Source: a virus. Taken from it: DNA of 32,000 nucleotides. The notes under the pieces are model-generated. The model was not told the DNA's origin and ran no database searches. It saw only the letters and a list, made by a program, of their open reading frames with translations. The position numbers and the translations under genes were made by a program. The stretch spans positions 1-32,000 of the IMG/VR virus record IMGVR_UViG_3300045988_148646. One strand, given 5' to 3'. Numbering within the stretch: position 1 is the first letter of the stretch; the number at the start of each line of letters is the position of its first letter. Below are positions 23,735 to 29,646 of this stretch, piece after piece.

Positions 23735-23925
23735 ACCCCCCTCTCATGCGCTCATGACCCAGTTTTTTTGAACTCCCCACGCCGTTCCCCAAAACGCAAA
23801 AAACTTTTGAAAGATAGGGGGGTCTATGCTGATCTGATCCCAGCCCTGGGCGCTTTCAGGGTTCAAAATTTGAATTAAGCAGCTACCACCACACCGCACC
23901 GTTAACGGCTTCAATCATATGATTG
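23735..23925. other. GC-rich non-coding island, candidate cos region
   Basis: It is locally far more GC-rich than its flanks. ACCCCCCT (23735-23742) and AGGGGGGT (23816-23823) form an inverted pair, and CCCTG-n8-CAGGG forms a hairpin. It lies just upstream of HNH-terS-terL. Confidence 0.4.
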
Positions 23926-23928
23926 TCA

Positions 23929-24083
23929 TATATTTATTATCGTGTTGAAAGATGTTTCAACATGCATTGTTGAAAGCGTTGTTTCATAACATGACAATAA
24001 CTATATTGCATGTATTTATTATTGTGTTGAAAGATGTTTCAACACGTGTTGTTGTAAACGCTCTTTCATAACATTACCATAGC
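23929..24083. repeat. Two ~73-bp direct repeats (82-bp period), each with a perfect hairpin TGTTGAAA-gatg-TTTCAACA
   Basis: Copy 1 is 23929-24001 and copy 2 is 24011-24083. The hairpins are at 23943-23962 and 24025-24044. Each copy also has a second GTTG(A/T)AA half-site. Confidence 0.8.
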
Positions 24084-24092
24084 CGTATTAAT

Positions 24093-24110
24093 AGAACGCG
24101 CGCACGTTCT
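24093..24110. repeat. GC-rich inverted repeat AGAACG-cgcgca-CGTTCT
   Basis: Seen directly in the sequence, between the long repeats and the iterons. Confidence 0.5.
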
Positions 24111-24166
24111 TATATATGCAATAAACATTGCACCACTCCAATATATATATCAGGTCATGCGCTCAG

Positions 24167-24240
24167 CTGGTGCATTGTCTTCAATGATCTGGTGCATTGC
24201 CTTCAATGATCTGGTGCATTGCCTTCAATGATCTGATTCA
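24167..24240. repeat. Tandem 22-bp iterons, 3 full copies plus a partial one (CTGGTGCATTG[T/C]CTTCAATGAT)
   Basis: Units at 24167-24188, 24189-24210 and 24211-24232, with a partial unit from 24233. They are flanked by (AT)n tracts at 24141-24150 and 24277-24290. Confidence 0.9.
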
Positions 24241-24423: not shown

Positions 24424-24451
24424 TTGACATTACACATATAATGTTTATAAT
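24424..24451 (+). promoter_or_regulatory. Consensus sigma-A promoter: TTGACA-16 nt-TATAAT
   Basis: TTGACA at 24424-24429 and TATAAT at 24446-24451. A second TATAAT lies at 24437-24442, and an A/T-rich UP-like tract lies upstream (24394-24423). Confidence 0.75.
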
Positions 24452-24455
24452 GTAA

Positions 24456-24481
24456 GTGTAAGCTAAATAAAAAGCTTACAC
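24456..24481 (+). promoter_or_regulatory. Inverted repeat GTGTAAGCT-n8-AGCTTACAC at the predicted transcription start (operator and/or 5' stem-loop)
   Basis: It has 9-bp perfect arms and begins 5 nt after the -10 box. Confidence 0.6.
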
Positions 24482-24726
24482 AAAACAAACGGCGCTTACT
24501 CATAAAGCCAAGCCAAGACAACTTTAAATTGAAGATTGGACTTGATAATATGGATAAGTTTATAAGTTTATTAAATAGGTTATTGTTTAGGCTTCACATT
24601 AAAGTAAGCCTAGACATAAAAAAAGGGCGCTTACTCATAGATATAAAAGTCAATGAATAGCGTCATTAAATAAGCAAATAAATTATAGCGTCGTTTGTTT
24701 AAATAGTCAAGTTTGGAGGTGTAAAT

Positions 24727-24918
24727 ATTGTAAGAAAAAAAAGCGGTTTGTTTGATCAATCCAAGTATATACAAGACTACCAAAAGCAAACATATAAACG
24801 TTATATTTTTCAAGTAAGAAAAGATAATACAGATCTTATAAATTGGCTTGAGTCAAAGCCAAACAAACAACGTTATATACTTGATCTAATTGAAACAGAC
24901 ATGAGCAAAAACAAATAA
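24727..24918 (+). CDS. Small ribbon-helix-helix (Arc/CopG-like) DNA-binding protein, apparent ATT start
   Basis: Hand translation gives (I/M)VRKKSGLFDQSKYIQDYQKQTYKRYIFQVRKDNTDLINWLESKPNKQRYILDLIETDMSKNK. GGAGGT (24715-24720) lies 6 nt upstream of ATT 24727. The frame opens at 24703 and has no ATG, GTG or TTG before codon 59. The beta-alpha-alpha pattern is typical of plasmid and phage RHH proteins. Confidence 0.5.
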   Translation: MVRKKSGLFDQSKYIQDYQKQTYKRYIFQVRKDNTDLINWLESKPNKQRYILDLIETDMSKNK

Positions 24919-25052
24919 AAACGTGAACCCCTAGCACGTCGCCAAACTTGAAAGGGATTCACACAACGGCAATTATACACAATATTCAGGAGGTTAAGCC
25001 CGTCTTGTATATATTGCTTTTCTATTCTACCATAGACGGGTTAAAAAAGAAA

Positions 25053-25535
25053 ATGAAAGAACAAAAATACTATTATGGAAATGCTATAAGTGAATACGGT
25101 TTAGAAAATGGACGTGTTGACTATGGAACTCTAGCAAAGGCTTTTGATGCCGTATTAAATAACGATATTATGAACCTAACTTATGATATTGGATGTTGGG
25201 AGCAAGTGAGCGGTATCATTGACAACACGGACGAGATAGAAGAGCTAGAAGAAAAAAGAGACGAGCTAGAAGAAGAAAACGAAAATAACCCATCACAAAT
25301 TATTGAAAATGAAATAAATGAAATAAATGAACAAATAGAAGAACTTGAAAACGAGCAAGACGAGAACAACGAAGTCTTTCAATGGTTTATTGTGGATGAT
25401 TGGGGCGCTAGATTATTACAAGATATCGATGAAGTTGTTTACTACAATGAAAAACTTGATATGTATTTATGGGGCGTTACGCACTACGGTACTTCTTGGG
25501 ACTATGTTCTAACAAGCGTTAAAATTGATTGGTAG
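25053..25535 (+). CDS. Highly acidic protein with a central Glu/Asn-rich helical insert (unknown; DNA-mimic candidate)
   Basis: 160 aa from ATG 25053 (MKEQKYYYG). An alternative in-frame TTG at 25005 lies 11 nt after AGGAGG (24988-24993). The central tract is DEIEELEEKRDELEEENENNPSQIIENEINEINEQIEELENEQDENNE. Confidence 0.65.
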   Translation: MKEQKYYYGNAISEYGLENGRVDYGTLAKAFDAVLNNDIMNLTYDIGCWEQVSGIIDNTDEIEELEEKRDELEEENENNPSQIIENEINEINEQIEELENEQDENNEVFQWFIVDDWGARLLQDIDEVVYYNEKLDMYLWGVTHYGTSWDYVLTSVKIDW

Positions 25536-25548
25536 GTGTAATACACCA

Positions 25549-25698
25549 ATGTTAACACGCAAAGATCTTGACAAGATGAGCGCCTTCCAGGTGCTCATAC
25601 TTGCTTTATTGAAGTTTTACTTTTATATATGTTTTGACTTGCTTATCATGGGCTTAATATTATGTTTTTCTTGTATTATATTGCCACTTATTTATTAA
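25549..25698 (+). CDS. 49-aa hydrophobic peptide (not in the ORF track)
   Basis: Hand translation gives MLTRKDLDKMSAFQVLILALLKFYFYICFDLLIMGLILCFSCIILPLIY. A TAGGTG SD lies 10 nt upstream, and the ORF exactly fills the gap between two genes. Confidence 0.4.
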   Translation: MLTRKDLDKMSAFQVLILALLKFYFYICFDLLIMGLILCFSCIILPLIY

Positions 25699-25716
25699 AT
25701 ATTGGAGGTTTTAAAA

Positions 25717-25947
25717 ATGAATAACAAAGAATATATTGAGTTTACAGAAAAAAAGCTAGATCAACTAAATGTTTCTAGCTGTAAACCTTTTTCAATCAAT
25801 AAACATTTAAACGGCTTATATAATTTATATTATGGGCTTGACGTTGTGGCCTGGATGTTAAAACCGCGTGAACTCTGGCAGCTTGTAAATACTTTATGTA
25901 TTTTGGATATTTTAGGAGGTCTTAAAAATGACAATATGGAAGCGTGA
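25717..25947 (+). CDS. Hypothetical protein
   Basis: 76 aa from ATG 25717, with a GGAGG SD 8 nt upstream. It overlaps the next gene by 20 nt. Confidence 0.65.
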   Translation: MNNKEYIEFTEKKLDQLNVSSCKPFSINKHLNGLYNLYYGLDVVAWMLKPRELWQLVNTLCILDILGGLKNDNMEA

Positions 25948-26521
25948 GCGTGCTCACTTTAATTACTACATCACAAATGAAAGAAAACAACCACACATAT
26001 TTGTTGAAGCGTTAGGAACTCCCAGCGCTTCAACTGAAAAAATTTTAAAAGATCACGGTTTTAAGTTTGATCATAATAAATGCATGTATGTAGCAGCTCA
26101 AACAAATGACTTGAGGTTGTTCGTTGCTCATGATCTGGATAAAGTTTTTAACTATGATATTCAGTTGTTTTATAATACAGAAGCAAAAAAAGAACTTTGC
26201 GCGCCTGATATTCAGGAAATAAAAGATATTTGTTATTATTTTAAAATTTACAAGTGTTATATAGATATATTAAATAAGGATCTTTTTAAGATATGTAAAC
26301 CAGGATCAAAAAGCTTGCTTTTTACTTATAACACTAACTATAAAACTATAGACGTTTTTAATAGAAATAAGTTGCAAGAAAGTTATGTTTACCATGATGG
26401 TAAAATAGAAAAAATGAGCATCGAAAATAATGCACCAAAAAAGAAAAAGAAAGCAGCACCAGCACTTACAGAACAACAAAAGATCAATAAAATGATGGAA
26501 GATTTTGAATTTCCATTTTAG
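25928..26521 (+). CDS. Hypothetical protein with a Lys-rich C-terminal tail
   Basis: 197 aa with an AGGAGGT SD. I recognise no motif. Confidence 0.7.
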   Translation: MTIWKRERAHFNYYITNERKQPHIFVEALGTPSASTEKILKDHGFKFDHNKCMYVAAQTNDLRLFVAHDLDKVFNYDIQLFYNTEAKKELCAPDIQEIKDICYYFKIYKCYIDILNKDLFKICKPGSKSLLFTYNTNYKTIDVFNRNKLQESYVYHDGKIEKMSIENNAPKKKKKAAPALTEQQKINKMMEDFEFPF

Positions 26522-26535
26522 GAGGTAAAAAAAAT

Positions 26536-27111
26536 ATGGGATACATTGGTAATAAAATGAGCGTGCGCGCTTATGAAGCTTATGAAAGTGGTGAAAAGCC
26601 ACTTTCAAAATGGACTAAAACAGCAATCATTAATACAGTATTAGATTATAGAGATGATTTTAAATATGATGAGTTGAAAAAGTATAGTAAGGATGCTTTA
26701 AAAGCTTTCCTAACATATTCAAGCTGGCATCATACGGGATCATACTTTAATGAAACATTTTTCTATAGTTTGGATGAAAGTTTTATAGAAAACGAAAAAA
26801 ATCATATCATAAACGTTTTAGAAGAAAAAACGCAAGAGTTAAAAAAAGAAAAAGAAGAAAAAAGATTAAAAAAATGTGATGAAAAACTAGAAAAATGTTA
26901 TTTTATGTATACAGAATTTGAAGGAACTCGAAAACATCCAAAAGCTGTTGAACGTGAAGCTTATGGAATTATAAAAGGAAATTGGATCTATATGGAATCA
27001 GGAAAAAAATCATTGAATGGTAAATACATTTATAAAGTAAAAAAGTTTGATCGTGCGCCACGCGGAACGGCTCAAATCTTTAAAAATATCGAAAAAAGAA
27101 TTAAAAAATAG
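26536..27111 (+). CDS. Hypothetical protein with the N-terminal motif SVRAYEAYESGEKPLSKWTK
   Basis: 191 aa with an AGGAGGT SD 9 nt upstream. From memory, the N-terminal motif recurs in Firmicute mobile-element proteins of unknown function. This was not verified. Confidence 0.7.
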   Translation: MGYIGNKMSVRAYEAYESGEKPLSKWTKTAIINTVLDYRDDFKYDELKKYSKDALKAFLTYSSWHHTGSYFNETFFYSLDESFIENEKNHIINVLEEKTQELKKEKEEKRLKKCDEKLEKCYFMYTEFEGTRKHPKAVEREAYGIIKGNWIYMESGKKSLNGKYIYKVKKFDRAPRGTAQIFKNIEKRIKK

Positions 27112-27137
27112 CAGCTTATAAAAAGGCTGCTTTTTTT
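27110..27137. terminator. Bidirectional rho-independent terminator between convergent genes
   Basis: Stem AGCAGCTT/AAGGCTGCT (27110-27131) is flanked by an A-run upstream and T7 downstream, so there is a U-tract on both strands. Stop codons of both convergent genes abut it. Confidence 0.8.
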
Positions 27138-27693
27138 ATGCTCTCGTTCTTTTTATTTGCTTCTGGATCAGCTTTTTTTTGACTGGATTCGATGCGAAAA
27201 AGTTCATGAAAAGTTTAGTTTTAAACTCATATTCTTTTTGATCAATTTCCTTTATATCCAAAACCCTTTTAAATATCACTATCGCGATAAAGTTCGCAAA
27301 CAAGTTTGCATCTTTTTCTATTTCCTGGTTCTCATAATTTTCATTTTGAGAATCTTTATAACTTTCAAGTTCCTTTTTCCATATAGATACACTTCTTTCA
27401 TCCATAGAAAATACTTTTTGATTCTTCTTATATACACATGAATATTGATATAAATGTCTTATTTCATGTGCAAGATATATATAAACTAAACTACTATCTA
27501 TGGATGTATTCAGGTTTACACAAATCACATTTTCAATTGGATAGGATGTGCATATACTGCTATCTTTCACTTGAAAAAGTTCTTTATTGACTGGTTTCTT
27601 ATTAAGATCATAAACTTTATCATTTGCTTTAAAGTAAACTTTTGGAATCTTTATATTTAATAATGTGCATAGAAAACTTATATAATCATTCAT
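27136..27693 (-). CDS. Putative zinc metallopeptidase, ImmA/IrrE-like (HExxH ... ExxDANxFA)
   Basis: 185 aa with LAHEIRH and, downstream, QEIEKDANLFANFIA, which resembles the COG2856 signature E..EAN.FA. No adjacent Xre-type HTH gene is present. Confidence 0.5.
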   Translation of the reverse strand: MNDYISFLCTLLNIKIPKVYFKANDKVYDLNKKPVNKELFQVKDSSICTSYPIENVICVNLNTSIDSSLVYIYLAHEIRHLYQYSCVYKKNQKVFSMDERSVSIWKKELESYKDSQNENYENQEIEKDANLFANFIAIVIFKRVLDIKEIDQKEYEFKTKLFMNFFASNPVKKKLIQKQIKRTRA

Positions 27694-28348
27694 ACATCCA
27701 TTATATCTGAAAAACTTTATTTTGAAAAACTTATTTATCCAGGATCAGAAAAACTTTTTCAAGTTGTTTTTGAGACGTTGGAAAAAACTTTTGAGATCCT
27801 TTTTCGTGTTTGCATAGAATCGAACCGTCAAAAAACTTTTCCAGCAGCTGAGAAAACTTTTCTTTCTTCACATAATAAACATAATTCACAGACACATCTT
27901 CATCATCATGCGAATTGTATTCAAAAACTTTTTCAACCAGATTAGAACAAATCACACCAATTTGTACATTATCATACTTTACAAAAACTTCTTTATAAGA
28001 AAACTTATTTTCATCCATTTCATCACTCCTAAAAACTTTTACATGTCACTCAATATTCTTAAAAACCTTTTATATTCTTCTTCTGATTTTAGATAAAACT
28101 TATTACATCCATTCTTTATATCTTCATAATTAAAGCACTCAATTTCATCATCTAAAAACTTTCTATATAAACTTTTGAATTGCGATTCACAAATATATTT
28201 CTTATGAATTCTTAATCCTTGTTCATCTTCATACTTGATAAAAGTTTCGCCTGACTTATAAACACATACAATATGATCTTCCCATTGTACAAAAAAACCA
28301 TCTGTATTATGAATCAGAAAAAACTTTTTCGCTTCTGTTAAAAACTTT
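27673..28348 (+). repeat. Dispersed same-orientation array of AAAACTT (mostly AAAAACTTT) motifs
   Basis: I counted 15 exact AAAACTT copies, starting at about 27673, 27711, 27726, 27750, 27784, 27832, 27853, 27924, 27984, 28000, 28032, 28095, 28155, 28320 and 28341. There are 2 near copies and one more at 28743-28751. All are on the plus strand. Confidence 0.8.
27731..28018 (-). CDS. Hypothetical small protein
   Basis: 95 aa, with recurring KF/KVF/KFF dipeptides encoded by the DNA motif. Confidence 0.6.
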   Translation of the reverse strand: MDENKFSYKEVFVKYDNVQIGVICSNLVEKVFEYNSHDDEDVSVNYVYYVKKEKFSQLLEKFFDGSILCKHEKGSQKFFPTSQKQLEKVFLILDK

Positions 28349-28377
28349 ACCACACTATCACTCCTATTTATCTGCAA
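28039..28377 (-). CDS. Hypothetical small protein
   Basis: 112 aa with the same KF-rich feature. Confidence 0.6.
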   Translation of the reverse strand: MQINRSDSVVKFLTEAKKFFLIHNTDGFFVQWEDHIVCVYKSGETFIKYEDEQGLRIHKKYICESQFKSLYRKFLDDEIECFNYEDIKNGCNKFYLKSEEEYKRFLRILSDM

Positions 28378-28639
28378 TCGTTTCTATATAACAATTATAA
28401 TAAATGTATCTTTTTCCATCATAATCAAATTTCACATATCCACCATCATTTGTTTCAATGTCAATTCTTCCCTCATAGCTTGCTAAAACTTTTCCATCTG
28501 CTGTATACACATTGATTTTTCTATCCAATCCACCATTCAAATCTGATTTTACATCAGTACCCCAACGATCCACAGAAGCACATCCAAATAAAGAAATGCC
28601 AATCATTCCAACCATTAATAATTTGTATAATTTATTCAT
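28364..28639 (-). CDS. Small lipoprotein (beta-rich), paralog 1
   Basis: 91 aa with a signal peptide and lipobox (ISLFGC). It shares the motif YEGRIDIETNDGGYVKFDYDGKRYIYY with the next lipoprotein. Confidence 0.7.
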   Translation of the reverse strand: MNKLYKLLMVGMIGISLFGCASVDRWGTDVKSDLNGGLDRKINVYTADGKVLASYEGRIDIETNDGGYVKFDYDGKRYIYYNCYIETIADK

Positions 28640-28780
28640 TTTATTTCCTTCTTTCTATGTCCGATAACTATATATTATCAGACTAACTACAAACCTTTTA
28701 AAAGCCTAGTAAATAGGCTGCTTTGTAACACTTTTCTAAAATAAAAACTTTATGAATTTTTGAGCCATGCTATAATGTGC

Positions 28781-29182
28781 TTATTTATTTGTATCTTCTA
28801 CATTAATCAAGCCATGTTCAATCGTTTCTTTAGCAGGAAAGAATGTTATTTTATATCCATACGGATTTTCTTTTACCGAATCGGTCTGAATACTTGTATA
28901 TGTTACATCTTTTGATAAATGTGCATAAAACAATTTATATTTATCTTTTCCAGTTTTAATCGTTACATTCAAATCGCCATCACTATCTGTTTCAATAGAT
29001 ATTTTTCCTTCAACAGAAAACAACGGTTCATTTGTTCTAGTATTTAATGCCACAACCTTTCTCGATATTTTAAAGTTGTTTGCATCCACTCTTAAATTAT
29101 GATTAGCTGTATCTGATTCTTGGCATCCTACCAAACCTAGACACATTGTCATTCCTAAAATTGCACATAATATTTTTTTCAT
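28781..29182 (-). CDS. Small lipoprotein (beta-rich), paralog 2
   Basis: 133 aa with lipobox LGLVGC and the motif VEGKISIETDSDGDLNVTIKTGKDKYKLFY. Confidence 0.7.
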   Translation of the reverse strand: MKKILCAILGMTMCLGLVGCQESDTANHNLRVDANNFKISRKVVALNTRTNEPLFSVEGKISIETDSDGDLNVTIKTGKDKYKLFYAHLSKDVTYTSIQTDSVKENPYGYKITFFPAKETIEHGLINVEDTNK

Positions 29183-29646
29183 TTGTTCAAATCTCCCATA
29201 ACAAGCTTTTTAAGCTCTTTTTTCATTGCATAATACATTTTCATTCTGCTACAGAACTTTTCTCCTGAAAGCTTCTCAAATGGCTCTCCATTGATATAAT
29301 GACGTTTCATGTATAAACGAACATCATCATTTGGAATAAGATCAATAATTGTTTCAACCTCTCTCAGCTTTCCTAAAATGATATTCTTATCATCTTCAAG
29401 TACTTTTTCTTTTGAAATAAACTTTACAAGAACATCATTTGTAATATCCTTATTTTTCTTTGAATCCAGTCTCTGCTCAAATGATGGAGATTTCGGATCT
29501 GAAAATTCTTTTTTGCGAACCTCCAAATCCTTCAAGATTCCATCCAACGATTTAAACTTTCTTTCATAGATCTTGAACATTTCAAGCTTTTTAATTAATG
29601 CATCCACCTGAACATCTACATATTCTTCATAATCCGTCTTGCTCAT
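29179..29646 (-). CDS. Sigma-region-4-like phage transcription regulator (ArpU/RinA/DUF1492-like class), candidate late activator
   Basis: 155 aa. The C-terminus IPNDDVRLYMKRHYINGEPFEKLSGEKFCSRMKMYYAMKKELKKL fits the (ER.IL..RYI.G..WE.IA..L..S.R.V.R....AL) pattern of such regulators. Confidence 0.5.
   Translation of the reverse strand: MSKTDYEEYVDVQVDALIKKLEMFKIYERKFKSLDGILKDLEVRKKEFSDPKSPSFEQRLDSKKNKDITNDVLVKFISKEKVLEDDKNIILGKLREVETIIDLIPNDDVRLYMKRHYINGEPFEKLSGEKFCSRMKMYYAMKKELKKLVMGDLNK

Follow-up and report, generated by a model that had tools for sequence, protein, structure and literature searches.

A dense single-strand array of the word AAGTTTT laid over small phage genes: a candidate binding array for a late activator

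The window—a 32,000-nucleotide stretch of viral DNA from a temperate gut or oral phage, with Solobacterium as its probable host—carries on its minus strand a set of small genes overlaid by many copies of one short word, all in the same orientation (Table 1). Read in the direction of these genes, a gene for an LtrB-like protein lies downstream of replication genes and small early genes and is followed by a Phage_VG64-like lipoprotein gene and then by the operon that holds the array. The hairpin and overlapping promoter-like site at 28674..28719 possibly mark the start of this operon; at its other end, a hairpin that is flanked by an A-run and, opposite, by a T-run is likely to serve as a two-way terminator between the operon and a module on the opposite strand. 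Judged from these sequence features, a single putative transcription unit would extend from the promoter-like site to the terminator. The opposite-strand module is cos-proximal, encodes ArdA in one relative and is headed by a promoter (24424–24451) that matches the consensus at 12 of 12 positions and points inward; the end of this strongly promoted module lies 0.5 kb from the array.

Two small genes, orf95 and orf104/112, carry most of the copies; the latter is likely to start at a GTG codon at 28353, after an AGGAG. Their products resemble each other towards the C-terminus, where KF positions fall into register (29% identity over 49 residues). In a third paralogue these positions read K-L-L and K-V-L, and the Phe codons are thus not required. 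An AlphaFold model of the orf95 product reached a pLDDT of 82, and a structure search with this model yielded no significant match and no known DNA-binding fold. Deletions and duplications have their endpoints exactly at motif copies. The metallopeptidase-like gene is missing from some relatives.

Table 1: Features of the array operon and of its surroundings in the window.
Feature	Coordinates	Strand	Remarks
Single copy AAAAAACTTTTGA in GC-rich cos-like region, upstream of HNH and terminase genes	23798..23810	+	
Hairpin with A-run on one side and T-run on the other	27110..27131		
Metallopeptidase-like gene (HEIRH motif, weak DUF6782 match)	27136..27693	-	One copy, codons 6–8
Core array, 15 exact AAAACTT	27673..28348	+	Reads AAGTTTT on coding strand
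orf95, small gene, 7 copies	27731..28018	-	Real gene, pN/pS 0.28; family confined to lineage
orf104/112, 4 copies	28039..28377	-	Distant orf95 paralogue; fast-evolving, pN/pS 0.62
Near copy AAAAACCTTT	28061..28070	+	
Near copy ATAAACTTT	28167..28175	+	
Lipoprotein gene (weak DUF5052 match), first of array operon	28364..28639	-	
Outlying exact 7-mer within DUF5052-like lipoprotein gene	28485..28491	+	Missing from first-pass list
Promoter-like site (TTTAAA, 17 nt, GATAAT), overlapping hairpin	28702-28674	-	9/12 match; such matches no commoner than in shuffles
Hairpin AGCCTA-N5-TAGGCT, then TTTT	28719-28699	-	Read from sequence
Outlying copy AAAAACTTT in spacer after VG64-like gene	28743..28751	+	Just upstream (minus-strand sense) of hairpin and promoter-like site
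Phage_VG64-like lipoprotein gene, between activator gene and array operon	28781..29182	-	
LtrB (DUF1492)-like late activator candidate, proposed array reader	29179..29646	-	0.8 kb upstream of array; 155 residues

Between 27673 and 28347, the plus strand holds 15 exact copies of AAAACTT and the minus strand none. The copies start at 27673, 27711, 27726, 27750, 27784, 27832, 27853, 27924, 27984, 28000, 28032, 28095, 28155, 28320 and 28341, and most are extended beyond the 7-mer: to AAAAACTT in 11 of the 15, to AAAACTTT in 10 and to AAAAACTTT in nine. This recount agrees with the first-pass annotation, which had listed 15 exact plus-strand copies across the two small genes, the 5′ end of the peptidase gene and both intervening gaps; copies were located in all of these places, as were the two near copies that it had mentioned. 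The additional copy that it had placed at 28743–28751 is real, and the spacer holding this copy is near-invariant across 23 distinct relatives. In 5000 dinucleotide-preserving shuffles of the local 711 bp, AAAACTT occurred 0.53 times on average and four times at most, against the 15 observed. In the same shuffles the commonest 7-mer of any kind averaged four copies, and throughout the window every other 7-mer stays at or below six copies per 700-bp stretch.

In the coding sense of these minus-strand genes the word is AAGTTTT, and a logo built from 310 distinct contexts gave the coding-strand consensus rAAAAGTTTTt with the hexamer AAGTTT as its strict core. One-mismatch variants within AAGTTT are not enriched in the arrays, whereas variants of the flanks are. 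Spacing between copies is irregular, from 13 to more than 300 bp, and shows no periodicity; phasing at the helical repeat of 10–11 bp was absent across 56 loci, with a mean Rayleigh power of 0.4–1.8 against 1 for random positions. Tandem Repeats Finder reported a single 15-bp, two-copy repeat and no longer repeat unit, no repeat family longer than the motif was found, and we rejected a decayed tandem repeat on the lack of such a unit. Nor did the logo reveal a conserved −10 element at constant distance from the copies, as it held no information there beyond that of neighbouring copies.

The word is selected at the nucleotide level, rather than as a peptide. On the coding strand it occupies all three frames, as had been noticed at the outset: AAG TTT (KF) eight times in the two small genes, AAA or GAA GTT TTT (KVF or EVF) three times, and AGT TTT (SF) once, in the peptidase gene. 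Density peaks in the non-coding spacers, where the copies at 27711, 27726 and 28032 amount to three per 57 bp of spacer. The codon shuffling proposed in the first-pass annotation as a check on its claim of a DNA word was carried out by resampling synonymous codons of both small proteins according to the window's own codon usage; this gave 2.34 copies on average (sd 1.32, maximum 9) against 11 observed, and none of 30,000 runs reached 11, so that the simulated density never matched the real one. Synonymous choice points the same way, as all eight Lys-Phe pairs in the two small genes use AAG TTT, against seven of 25 elsewhere (Fisher p = 4.6e-4), and third codon positions are more conserved within motif copies (0.990) than outside them (0.923). 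Frameshifted orf95 variants (P0064, P0070, P0035 and P0047) still read K-S-F at the sites checked, and an inserted, unrelated membrane-protein gene carries five to seven copies. The array thus has the properties neither of a peptide repeat nor of a decayed tandem repeat. Avoidance of AATT or AAATTT sites was also considered and rejected: AATT occurs 355 times in the window, where a rough hand estimate from base composition gives about 380, and Lys-Phe pairs outside the array are freely encoded as AAA TTT.

These results make it very improbable that the array is a functionless by-product of paralogous proteins that need, at several positions, a lysine followed by hydrophobic residues, with AAG TTT either inherited or spread by gene conversion or slippage. 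Such an origin would account for the aligned KF positions of orf95 and orf104, for the location of most copies in these two genes and for the deletions and duplications that stop exactly at motif copies. Paralogues at 29% identity should, however, no longer share synonymous codons, the third paralogue shows that the Phe codons are dispensable, and the word also fills spacers and an unrelated membrane-protein gene, in three frames and with no longer repeat unit; to this are added the excess conservation of synonymous sites inside the copies and the lack of any inverted copy in the relatives.

Among 59 related phage loci, each array contains 13–23 copies (median 16) over 627–1409 bp, and within the arrays 954 copies lie on the one strand and none on the other. 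Word density is 17 per kb in the arrays; outside them it is 0.38 per kb on one strand and 0.41 per kb on the other. The array persists even though its region diverges much faster than the structural genes, with a DNA identity of 85–92% compared with 95–97% for structural genes and 99–100% for the large terminase protein. Some inserted genes in the region (YjcQ-like, g91 and g97) hold only 0–2 copies. A pattern scan of viral contigs recovered true arrays only in the present lineage, the remaining hits being AT-rich giant-virus repeats or unrelated repeats of three or four copies; the protein families of orf95, of the Ltr-like protein and of the inserted membrane protein have no members outside this phage lineage, and blastn and tblastn searches against cultured phages gave no matches. 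A literature search on the word AAGTTTT returned nothing relevant. One relative, L211, has the common replication module and diverges downstream; its sequence ends before the terminase genes and it is therefore unusable as an array-less control.

The LtrB-like protein encoded beside the array operon is the best candidate for a reader of the word. It scored 20.5 bits against Pfam DUF1492, just below the cut-off of 21.5; some close homologues carry a precomputed PF07374 match, and a profile search starting from it reached one protein with DUF1492 (38.9 bits) and one with Sigma70_r4_2 (30.4 bits), which together place it in the Ltr superfamily. Its predicted structure consists of long helices and a C-terminal three-helix unit, and Foldseek found no significant match for the whole model. 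The protein is conserved at 93–97% in all relatives, far above the genes of the array. A single helix-turn-helix of the sigma region 4 type reads a strict element of just this length, 6–7 bp, as with the −35 hexamer.

Activators of the Ltr type (RinA, ArpU, LtrA, LtrB and LtrC of Gram-positive siphophages) bind 7-nt direct repeats that directly follow their own gene, with a terminator and the late promoter coming next; the characterised RinA, ArpU and LtrC have two to four such repeats and then activate the operon for terminase, structural and lysis genes (Quiles-Puchalt et al., 2013; PMC3753634). The locus described here resembles these control regions in its head-to-tail direct repeats with a 7-nt core (the 7-mer AAGTTTT, in one orientation), in a site size that fits a sigma region 4-type helix-turn-helix and perhaps in the order of copy, hairpin and promoter-like site: the copy at 28743–28751 is followed by the hairpin (28719–28703) and by the promoter-like site, though this site stands before the array operon, not before terS, and its 9/12 match is of a kind no commoner than in shuffles. 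It differs in that known Ltr regions hold 2–4 copies in a spacer block of about 59 nt, whereas here 13–23 copies are spread over 0.6–1.4 kb of mostly coding DNA. Known regions also lie immediately distal to the activator gene and before terS, whereas here the lipoprotein gene intervenes, the array starts 0.4–0.8 kb beyond the activator gene, and terS is about 5.6 kb away, beyond the opposite-strand module and the cos region.

Our preferred reading, held tentatively and with a good chance of being wrong, is that the array is an expanded DNA-binding array for a phage protein, with the LtrB-like activator as candidate reader; of the roles suggested in the first-pass annotation, we still favour that of an array bound by a phage regulator. 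The array would be a cis-acting multi-site element of some 16 head-to-tail copies of AAGTTT[T], A-rich on their 5′ side and superimposed on two small paralogues, on genes inserted here and there and on the spacers, at the far end of the early region. Its reader on duplex DNA would be a sequence-specific phage protein—most probably, among the candidates, the LtrB (DUF1492, sigma-70 region 4-like) protein—and an Ltr-type site would here have grown 4- to 10-fold in number and spread into coding sequence. Such an array could act as a high-capacity platform that keeps many activator molecules beside their own gene, with a threshold or delay for late transcription through titration as the likely effect; alternatively, it might concentrate the activator for the flanking promoters, namely those of the array operon and of the late genes near cos, 4 kb away. 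That the word is read as DNA rather than RNA, that its reader is Ltr-like and what binding achieves are all points that we infer.

Several observations sit awkwardly with an Ltr-type reader: a lipoprotein gene and some 430–830 bp lie between the ltr-like gene and the array, the copies number 13–23 instead of 2–4 and fall mostly in coding DNA, the opposite-strand module and the cos region separate the array from terS, and some inserted genes carry only 0–2 copies. Activator and array are never found apart, as neither extends beyond a single lineage. A cooperative DNA-binding array would not usually show such irregular, unphased spacing. Closer to the late genes lie other repeats (three of 22 bp at 24167–24240 and two of 81 bp at 23927–24089), and the real Ltr sites could just as well be these.

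As the array runs in the direction of transcription, moreover, all the features found would also suit a reading at the level of mRNA. The transcript, reading AAGUUUU, would then offer about 16 strict short sites to an RNA-binding factor or to the seed of a small RNA, as a sponge or multi-site target, or would form a cluster of cleavage sites for a sequence-specific endoribonuclease. We regard this RNA-level reading as a serious rival, though as rather unlikely in itself. All copies run with transcription within one putative unit, and the word ignores reading frame and fills spacers; seed or sponge arrays such as CsrB likewise combine a strict core with flanks that are free to vary and with irregular spacing. 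The sequence AAAAGU amounts to two A-R-N triplets, then a U-run, a binding sequence of the Hfq type, and a G followed by an AU-rich stretch resembles the preferences of RNase Y and RNase E. The array nevertheless adds no structure: both strands fold no better than shuffles (z = −0.25 and +1.48), and searches for Rfam families and tRNAs gave no matches, on which grounds we rejected a structured RNA. Outside the arrays the word is neither depleted nor strand-biased in the phage, and there is therefore no sign of genome-wide nuclease pressure. The likeness to CsrB and RsmZ extends to many short strict-core motifs, irregularly spaced in what appears to be one transcript; these sponge RNAs, by contrast, are non-coding, with a known protein partner and a defined fold that presents GGA in hairpin loops, whereas the present operon encodes proteins under purifying selection. 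To our knowledge, all known bacterial sponge RNAs are non-coding. A signal of the other kind, polar and read by a DNA translocase, might be Chi-like and act against AddAB, brake packaging some 4 kb before a terminal cos or, from a place just behind an anti-defence module at the leading end, pause genome entry in the manner of the first-step transfer of phage T5. Signals that translocases read typically combine strict one-strand orientation with irregular spacing, some 4 kb separate the array from cos, and the cos-proximal module has its perfect inward consensus promoter and, in one relative, ArdA. We consider such a signal, which has no direct support, quite improbable. In 9.9 kb of host flank the word occurs four times against 2.4 expected and on the other strand once against 2.0, which, as far as so small a sample shows, falls short of what a host Chi would give; known Chi sequences are G-rich; and we know of no two-step entry among temperate cos siphophages. 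Taken together, either an mRNA sponge of about 16 sites for a host RNA-binding factor or small-RNA seed or a one-way DNA signal that stalls entry or packaging right behind the leading-end anti-defence module has, in our estimate, only a modest chance of being right; if true, it would be a mechanism undescribed for temperate phages and a clear case of a regulatory code over a protein code.

A DNA reader other than the Ltr-like protein—another phage protein, possibly the orf95 or orf104 product, the small terminase subunit or a host nucleoid protein, with a role in packaging, in silencing of this accessory operon or as a roadblock to transcription that arrives from the opposite-strand module—shares the same evidence of selection on nucleotides, and the nearby end of the strongly promoted opposite-strand module would suit it, as would the single copy that lies centrally in the cos-like region and is unchanged in 44 distinct relatives. 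The 13-mer AAAAAACTTTTGA, which had been reported as shared between array and cos region, does occur exactly twice (at 27782 and 23798), but the connection is weaker than it first seemed: in two relatives that keep the array, the cos copy is replaced by GGGAGTTTTTT, and it resembles half of an inverted pair specific to cos, AGTTTTTTG and CAAAAAAACT, so that its kinship to the array is uncertain. The 22-bp and 81-bp repeats that adjoin cos are classical candidates for the terminase site, copies are absent from the 8 kb upstream of the large terminase gene in a phage with 48% identity in that protein, the orf95 model has no known DNA-binding fold, and nucleoid proteins prefer AT-rich DNA in a loose way that does not match a strict hexamer; we judge a reader of this sort unlikely. 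A replication origin, with iterons in genes, or a partition centromere is scarcely credible. Direct repeats in AT-rich DNA within genes do give a superficial likeness to lambda ori, the comparison offered in the first-pass annotation, but in relatives the genes for a replisome organiser (Phg_2220_C) and a DnaC-like loader lie 8–10 kb upstream, and the organiser gene carries its own four 24-bp iterons (L193:9523-9618). The motif is just 6–9 bp long with unconserved flanks and irregular spacing, whereas iteron origins of the lambda O or TP901-1/Tuc2009 type have regularly spaced repeats of 11–24 bp in or near the initiator gene; DnaA boxes were not found near the array. The centromere proposed there fares no better, as an integrase is present, a prophage of this lineage lies within a bacterial contig of 1.74 Mb and neither the window nor some 20 kb of relatives showed any partition genes, whereas parC, parS and tubC go with NTPase and adaptor genes on extrachromosomal elements. 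Intrinsic bending, a further suggestion, does not hold as an array-wide effect: curved DNA has A-tracts in phase at about 10.5 bp, and here 10–11-bp phasing is lacking (Rayleigh about 1–2, against 1 for random).

Repeated short words that overlap coding sequence are known from the lambda ori iterons in gene O and from P1 pac in pacA, with seven TGATCA/G hexamers; where a cis element overlaps coding sequence, the protein must accommodate it. P1 pac has a strict hexamer, as here. Both systems consist of 4–7 regular sites in or near the gene of their reader, in contrast to the roughly 16 irregular sites of the present array; the replication origin appears to lie elsewhere in this phage, unlike lambda ori, and better terminase-site candidates adjoin cos, unlike P1 pac. 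A parallel to the titration that we propose is Escherichia coli datA, likewise a reservoir that holds a regulator (DnaA) and sets a threshold, although datA consists of a few 9-bp boxes in non-coding DNA, with IHF.

Two codes share the same DNA at this locus in an unusually clean form, with about 17 copies per kb on one strand over fast-evolving proteins, and every copy could be erased by synonymous changes that leave the proteins unaltered. If RNA or a translocase reads the word, the mechanism would be new. If the late activator reads the array, Ltr control regions would prove expandable into high-capacity arrays, and the phage would provide a natural test system for a titration-timed switch to packaging and lysis, a switch that also governs transduction in Gram-positive bacteria.

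Between 27673 and 28347, AAAACTT occurs in 15 exact copies on the plus strand and in none on the other, nine of the 15 extending to AAAAACTTT; across the whole 32-kb window, the plus and minus strands carry 21 and 10 copies, respectively. Shuffling the local 711 bp 5,000 times with dinucleotides preserved gave a mean of 0.53 copies and a maximum of four, and no other 7-mer exceeds six copies per 700-bp stretch anywhere in the window. The first-pass annotation had described a one-orientation array beyond chance at 27673–28348, accompanied by two near copies, an outlying copy and a 13-mer held in common with the cos-like region; all of these are present, the 13-mer AAAAAACTTTTGA lying at 27782 and again at 23798, within the GC-rich cos-like region. 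The array is real and strongly selected, and coding does not account for it.

The genes under the array all lie on the minus strand, so that the word on the coding strand is AAGTTTT. When the protein sequences of the two small genes, orf95 and orf104/112, were held fixed and synonymous codons were redrawn from the codon usage of the window, resampling yielded 2.34 copies (sd 1.32, maximum 9), whereas the genes hold 11, a count reached in none of 30,000 runs. Lys-Phe pairs are 15 times commoner in these genes than elsewhere in the window and are always written AAG TTT (8/8, against 7/25 elsewhere; p = 4.6e-4). The word is read in all three frames (as KF, KVF/EVF or SF), and the densest part of the array is in the spacers, with three copies in 57 bp. 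Tandem Repeats Finder and a repeat search found no repeat unit longer than the motif, bar a weak upstream TG that reflects Leu/Val-Glu codons. The earlier view that the conserved unit is a DNA word rather than a peptide repeat thus withstands codon resampling and agrees with the AAG TTT bias, the use of three frames and the spacer copies: it is the word that is selected, not the peptide.

The array was found in every related locus covering the region (56 IMG/VR loci, further metagenome contigs and a Solobacterium record). Among the 59 loci in which it is not cut by the locus end, arrays hold 13–23 copies (median 16) over 627–1409 bp (median 984), with all 954 copies falling on the coding strand; word density is 17 per kb inside and 0.38 and 0.41 per kb outside, on the two strands. 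This is a fast-evolving region, with DNA identity of 85–92% against 95–97% in the structural genes; the large terminase protein is 99–100% identical across the family. With pN/pS at 0.28, orf95 is a real gene; six of its seven sites are retained in 88–100% of 50 distinct sequences and third codon positions are conserved at 0.990 within sites versus 0.923 outside; orf104 is looser (pN/pS 0.62), with sites gained and lost. Among the orf95 variants examined (P0056, P0057, P0060, P0065, P0064, P0070, P0035 and P0047), deletions and a duplication end exactly at motif copies, and frameshifted natural forms still read K-S-F at the sites checked, their tails being kept open by a word that gives K-F, K-V-F or K-S-F according to frame. 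An unrelated inserted membrane-protein gene carries five to seven copies; other inserted genes (YjcQ-like, g91 and g97) carry none to two. The 9-mer AAAAACTTT also turns up, with no known link to the array, in other phages from the same metagenome: one group has it in three 32-bp tandem repeats in the portal/scaffold gene gap (L093:1500-1572, L113:7873-7944), and another contig has four copies in a promoter-like spacer (L085:1342-1406).

A logo of 310 distinct contexts reads rAAAAGTTTTt, with no information beyond. Within arrays, enrichment is seen for variants of the A-rich 5′ flank and of the last T but not for one-mismatch variants of AAGTTT, which makes the hexamer the strict core. Spacings are irregular (common values 15, 16, 21, 24, 33–34, 38, 48, 60, 71 and 87 bp), and the copies recur at no regular period, helical or otherwise. 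The first-pass annotation had described the A5-C-T4/5 junctions as intrinsically bent; with such spacing the array cannot sum to a curved segment, nor does it resemble a regular filament site.

Features of the array region and its surroundings, those from the DUF1492-like gene to the terminator in order of transcription
Feature	Position	Strand	Remarks
DUF1492-like gene, candidate late activator	29179-29646	-	First
Phage_VG64-like lipoprotein gene	28781-29182	-	Second
Spacer, 140 bp	28640-28780		Third
DUF5052-like lipoprotein gene	28364-28639	-	Fourth
orf104/112	28039-28377	-	Fifth; likely start GTG at 28353, after AGGAG
orf95	27731-28018	-	Sixth
HEXXH peptidase-like gene	27136-27693	-	Seventh
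Two-way terminator hairpin (putative)	27110-27131		Last
Opposite-strand module, about six small genes	~24729-27111 (24424-27111 with promoter)	+	Between array operon and cos
Promoter of opposite-strand module	24424-24451	+	TTGACA, 16 nt, TATAAT; consensus 12/12
Near copy	28061-28070	+	
Near copy	28167-28175	+	
Outlying exact copy	28485-28491	+	
Outlying exact copy	28743-28751	+	
-10-like hexamer TAAAAT	23735-23730		Interval to the G of the cos-region copy, 23735-23804
-10-like hexamer GATAAT	28679-28674		Interval to the G of the 28743-28751 copy, 28679-28748

Past the opposite-strand module lies a cos-like region rich in repeats, followed by the HNH, small and large terminase and structural genes. 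The gene content of the module is highly variable among relatives, one of which encodes the anti-restriction protein ArdA there (L276:14514-15020), and it has the look of an anti-defence island at the leading end. Facing the module promoter is a minus-strand promoter close to consensus (24710-24682; 11/12), followed by a minus-strand terminator (24272-24256); the convergent overlapping transcripts suggest a transcriptional-interference switch or a short leader RNA preceding the late genes, as at lambda PR′-tR′. The two small lipoprotein genes flanking the start of the array operon may encode superinfection-exclusion proteins; PHROGs labels the Phage_VG64-like family a recombination directionality factor, which is unlikely given the lipoprotein signal peptide.

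To judge from its relatives, this is a temperate siphophage: they encode an integrase, a CI-like repressor, a second tyrosine recombinase, a Phg_2220_C replisome organiser and a DnaC-like loader, and one copy of the phage is embedded in a bacterial contig of 1.74 Mb. Only one host record carries a name, a metagenome-assembled Solobacterium genome. In one relative the second recombinase (299 residues; L193:7849-8748) sits in the early operon, and the integrase is separate, beside the lysin gene.

Several roles were set aside. A lambda-style origin, suggested initially, is opposed by initiator genes 8–10 kb away, by a lack of DnaA boxes near the array and by the relatives’ organiser gene having its own iterons. 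These are four tandem 24-bp repeats of type GAATGGTCAAAAATGACCAATnTA within the Phg_2220_C gene, beyond the window end (L193:9523-9618); an origin inside the initiator gene is the classical layout, and they are probably the phage ori. The centromere-like role raised alongside it does not suit an integrating phage with no partition genes in the window or in about 20 kb of its relatives. Both strands folded no better than shuffles did, and comparison with Rfam gave no match; RNA structure was set aside accordingly. As for terminase sites, better candidates adjoin cos: the stretch 23927-24240, bounded by the terminator on one side and the GC-rich cos core on the other, holds two 81-bp direct repeats (23927-24089), each with a palindrome, GTGTTGAAAGATGTTTCAACAC, and three direct repeats of 22 bp (24167-24240; CTGGTGCATTGCCTTCAATGAT). 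The small terminase subunit, or alternatively the late activator, may bind at these repeats. The word is absent from the 8 kb upstream of the large terminase gene in a phage whose enzyme is 48% identical. The cos-region copy, invariant in 44 distinct relatives and replaced by GGGAGTTTTTT in two others that retain the array, resembles one arm of an inverted pair around the GC-rich core; it may or may not be linked to the array. The G of this copy and that of the copy at 28743-28751 each lie exactly 69 nt upstream of a -10-like hexamer, which may be coincidence.

The closest precedent for the array is work on the Ltr late-activator superfamily (RinA/ArpU/LtrA/LtrB/LtrC), whose members are the sole phage factor needed to switch on terminase, structural and lysis genes and bind two to four direct 7-nt repeats just after their own gene, followed by a terminator and the late promoter (PMC3753634). 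The array likewise consists of direct repeats whose core is 7 nt long, and they lie downstream of a DUF1492-like gene, which occupies the corresponding position; the array differs in copy number, location inside genes and distances from the activator gene and terS. After the copy at 28743-28751 come a hairpin and a promoter-like site, which precede the array operon and not terS; promoter-like matches of this kind are no commoner than in shuffles. A single sigma region 4-type helix-turn-helix reads a strict 6–7-bp site. The DUF1492-like protein itself scores 20.5 bits against DUF1492, below the cut-off of 21.5. Close homologues have precomputed DUF1492 matches, and searching with a profile derived from the protein retrieves a true DUF1492 protein at 38.9 bits and one with Sigma70_r4_2 at 30.4 bits. 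Its predicted model has long paired helices and then a three-helix C-terminal unit; a Foldseek search with the whole chain was uninformative. On the precedent, this gene, the direct repeats, the site size and the hairpin with its promoter-like site, we tentatively propose, as a possibility still short of an even chance, that the array is a putative expanded Ltr-type binding region. It would hold many activator molecules, which would set a threshold for late transcription or be concentrated near their targets.

Since the array runs in the direction of transcription within a single putative transcription unit, all its features fit equally well a word read on mRNA. The transcript might offer many sites to an RNA-binding protein or a small-RNA seed, as a sponge or a target, or carry clustered endoribonuclease sites; no partner or supporting structure was found, and we consider this main rival unlikely. 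Less likely again are reading by another DNA-binding protein, origin as a by-product of paralogy, and a polar translocase signal, whether a Chi-like site, a packaging brake or an entry pause; the word is not clearly in excess in 9.9 kb of host chromosome, a sample too small to weigh on the Chi-like reading.

The copies could be erased by synonymous recoding. As an Ltr-type repeat region, the array would be a variant of a known system; a role on RNA, or as a translocase signal, would make it new in kind.
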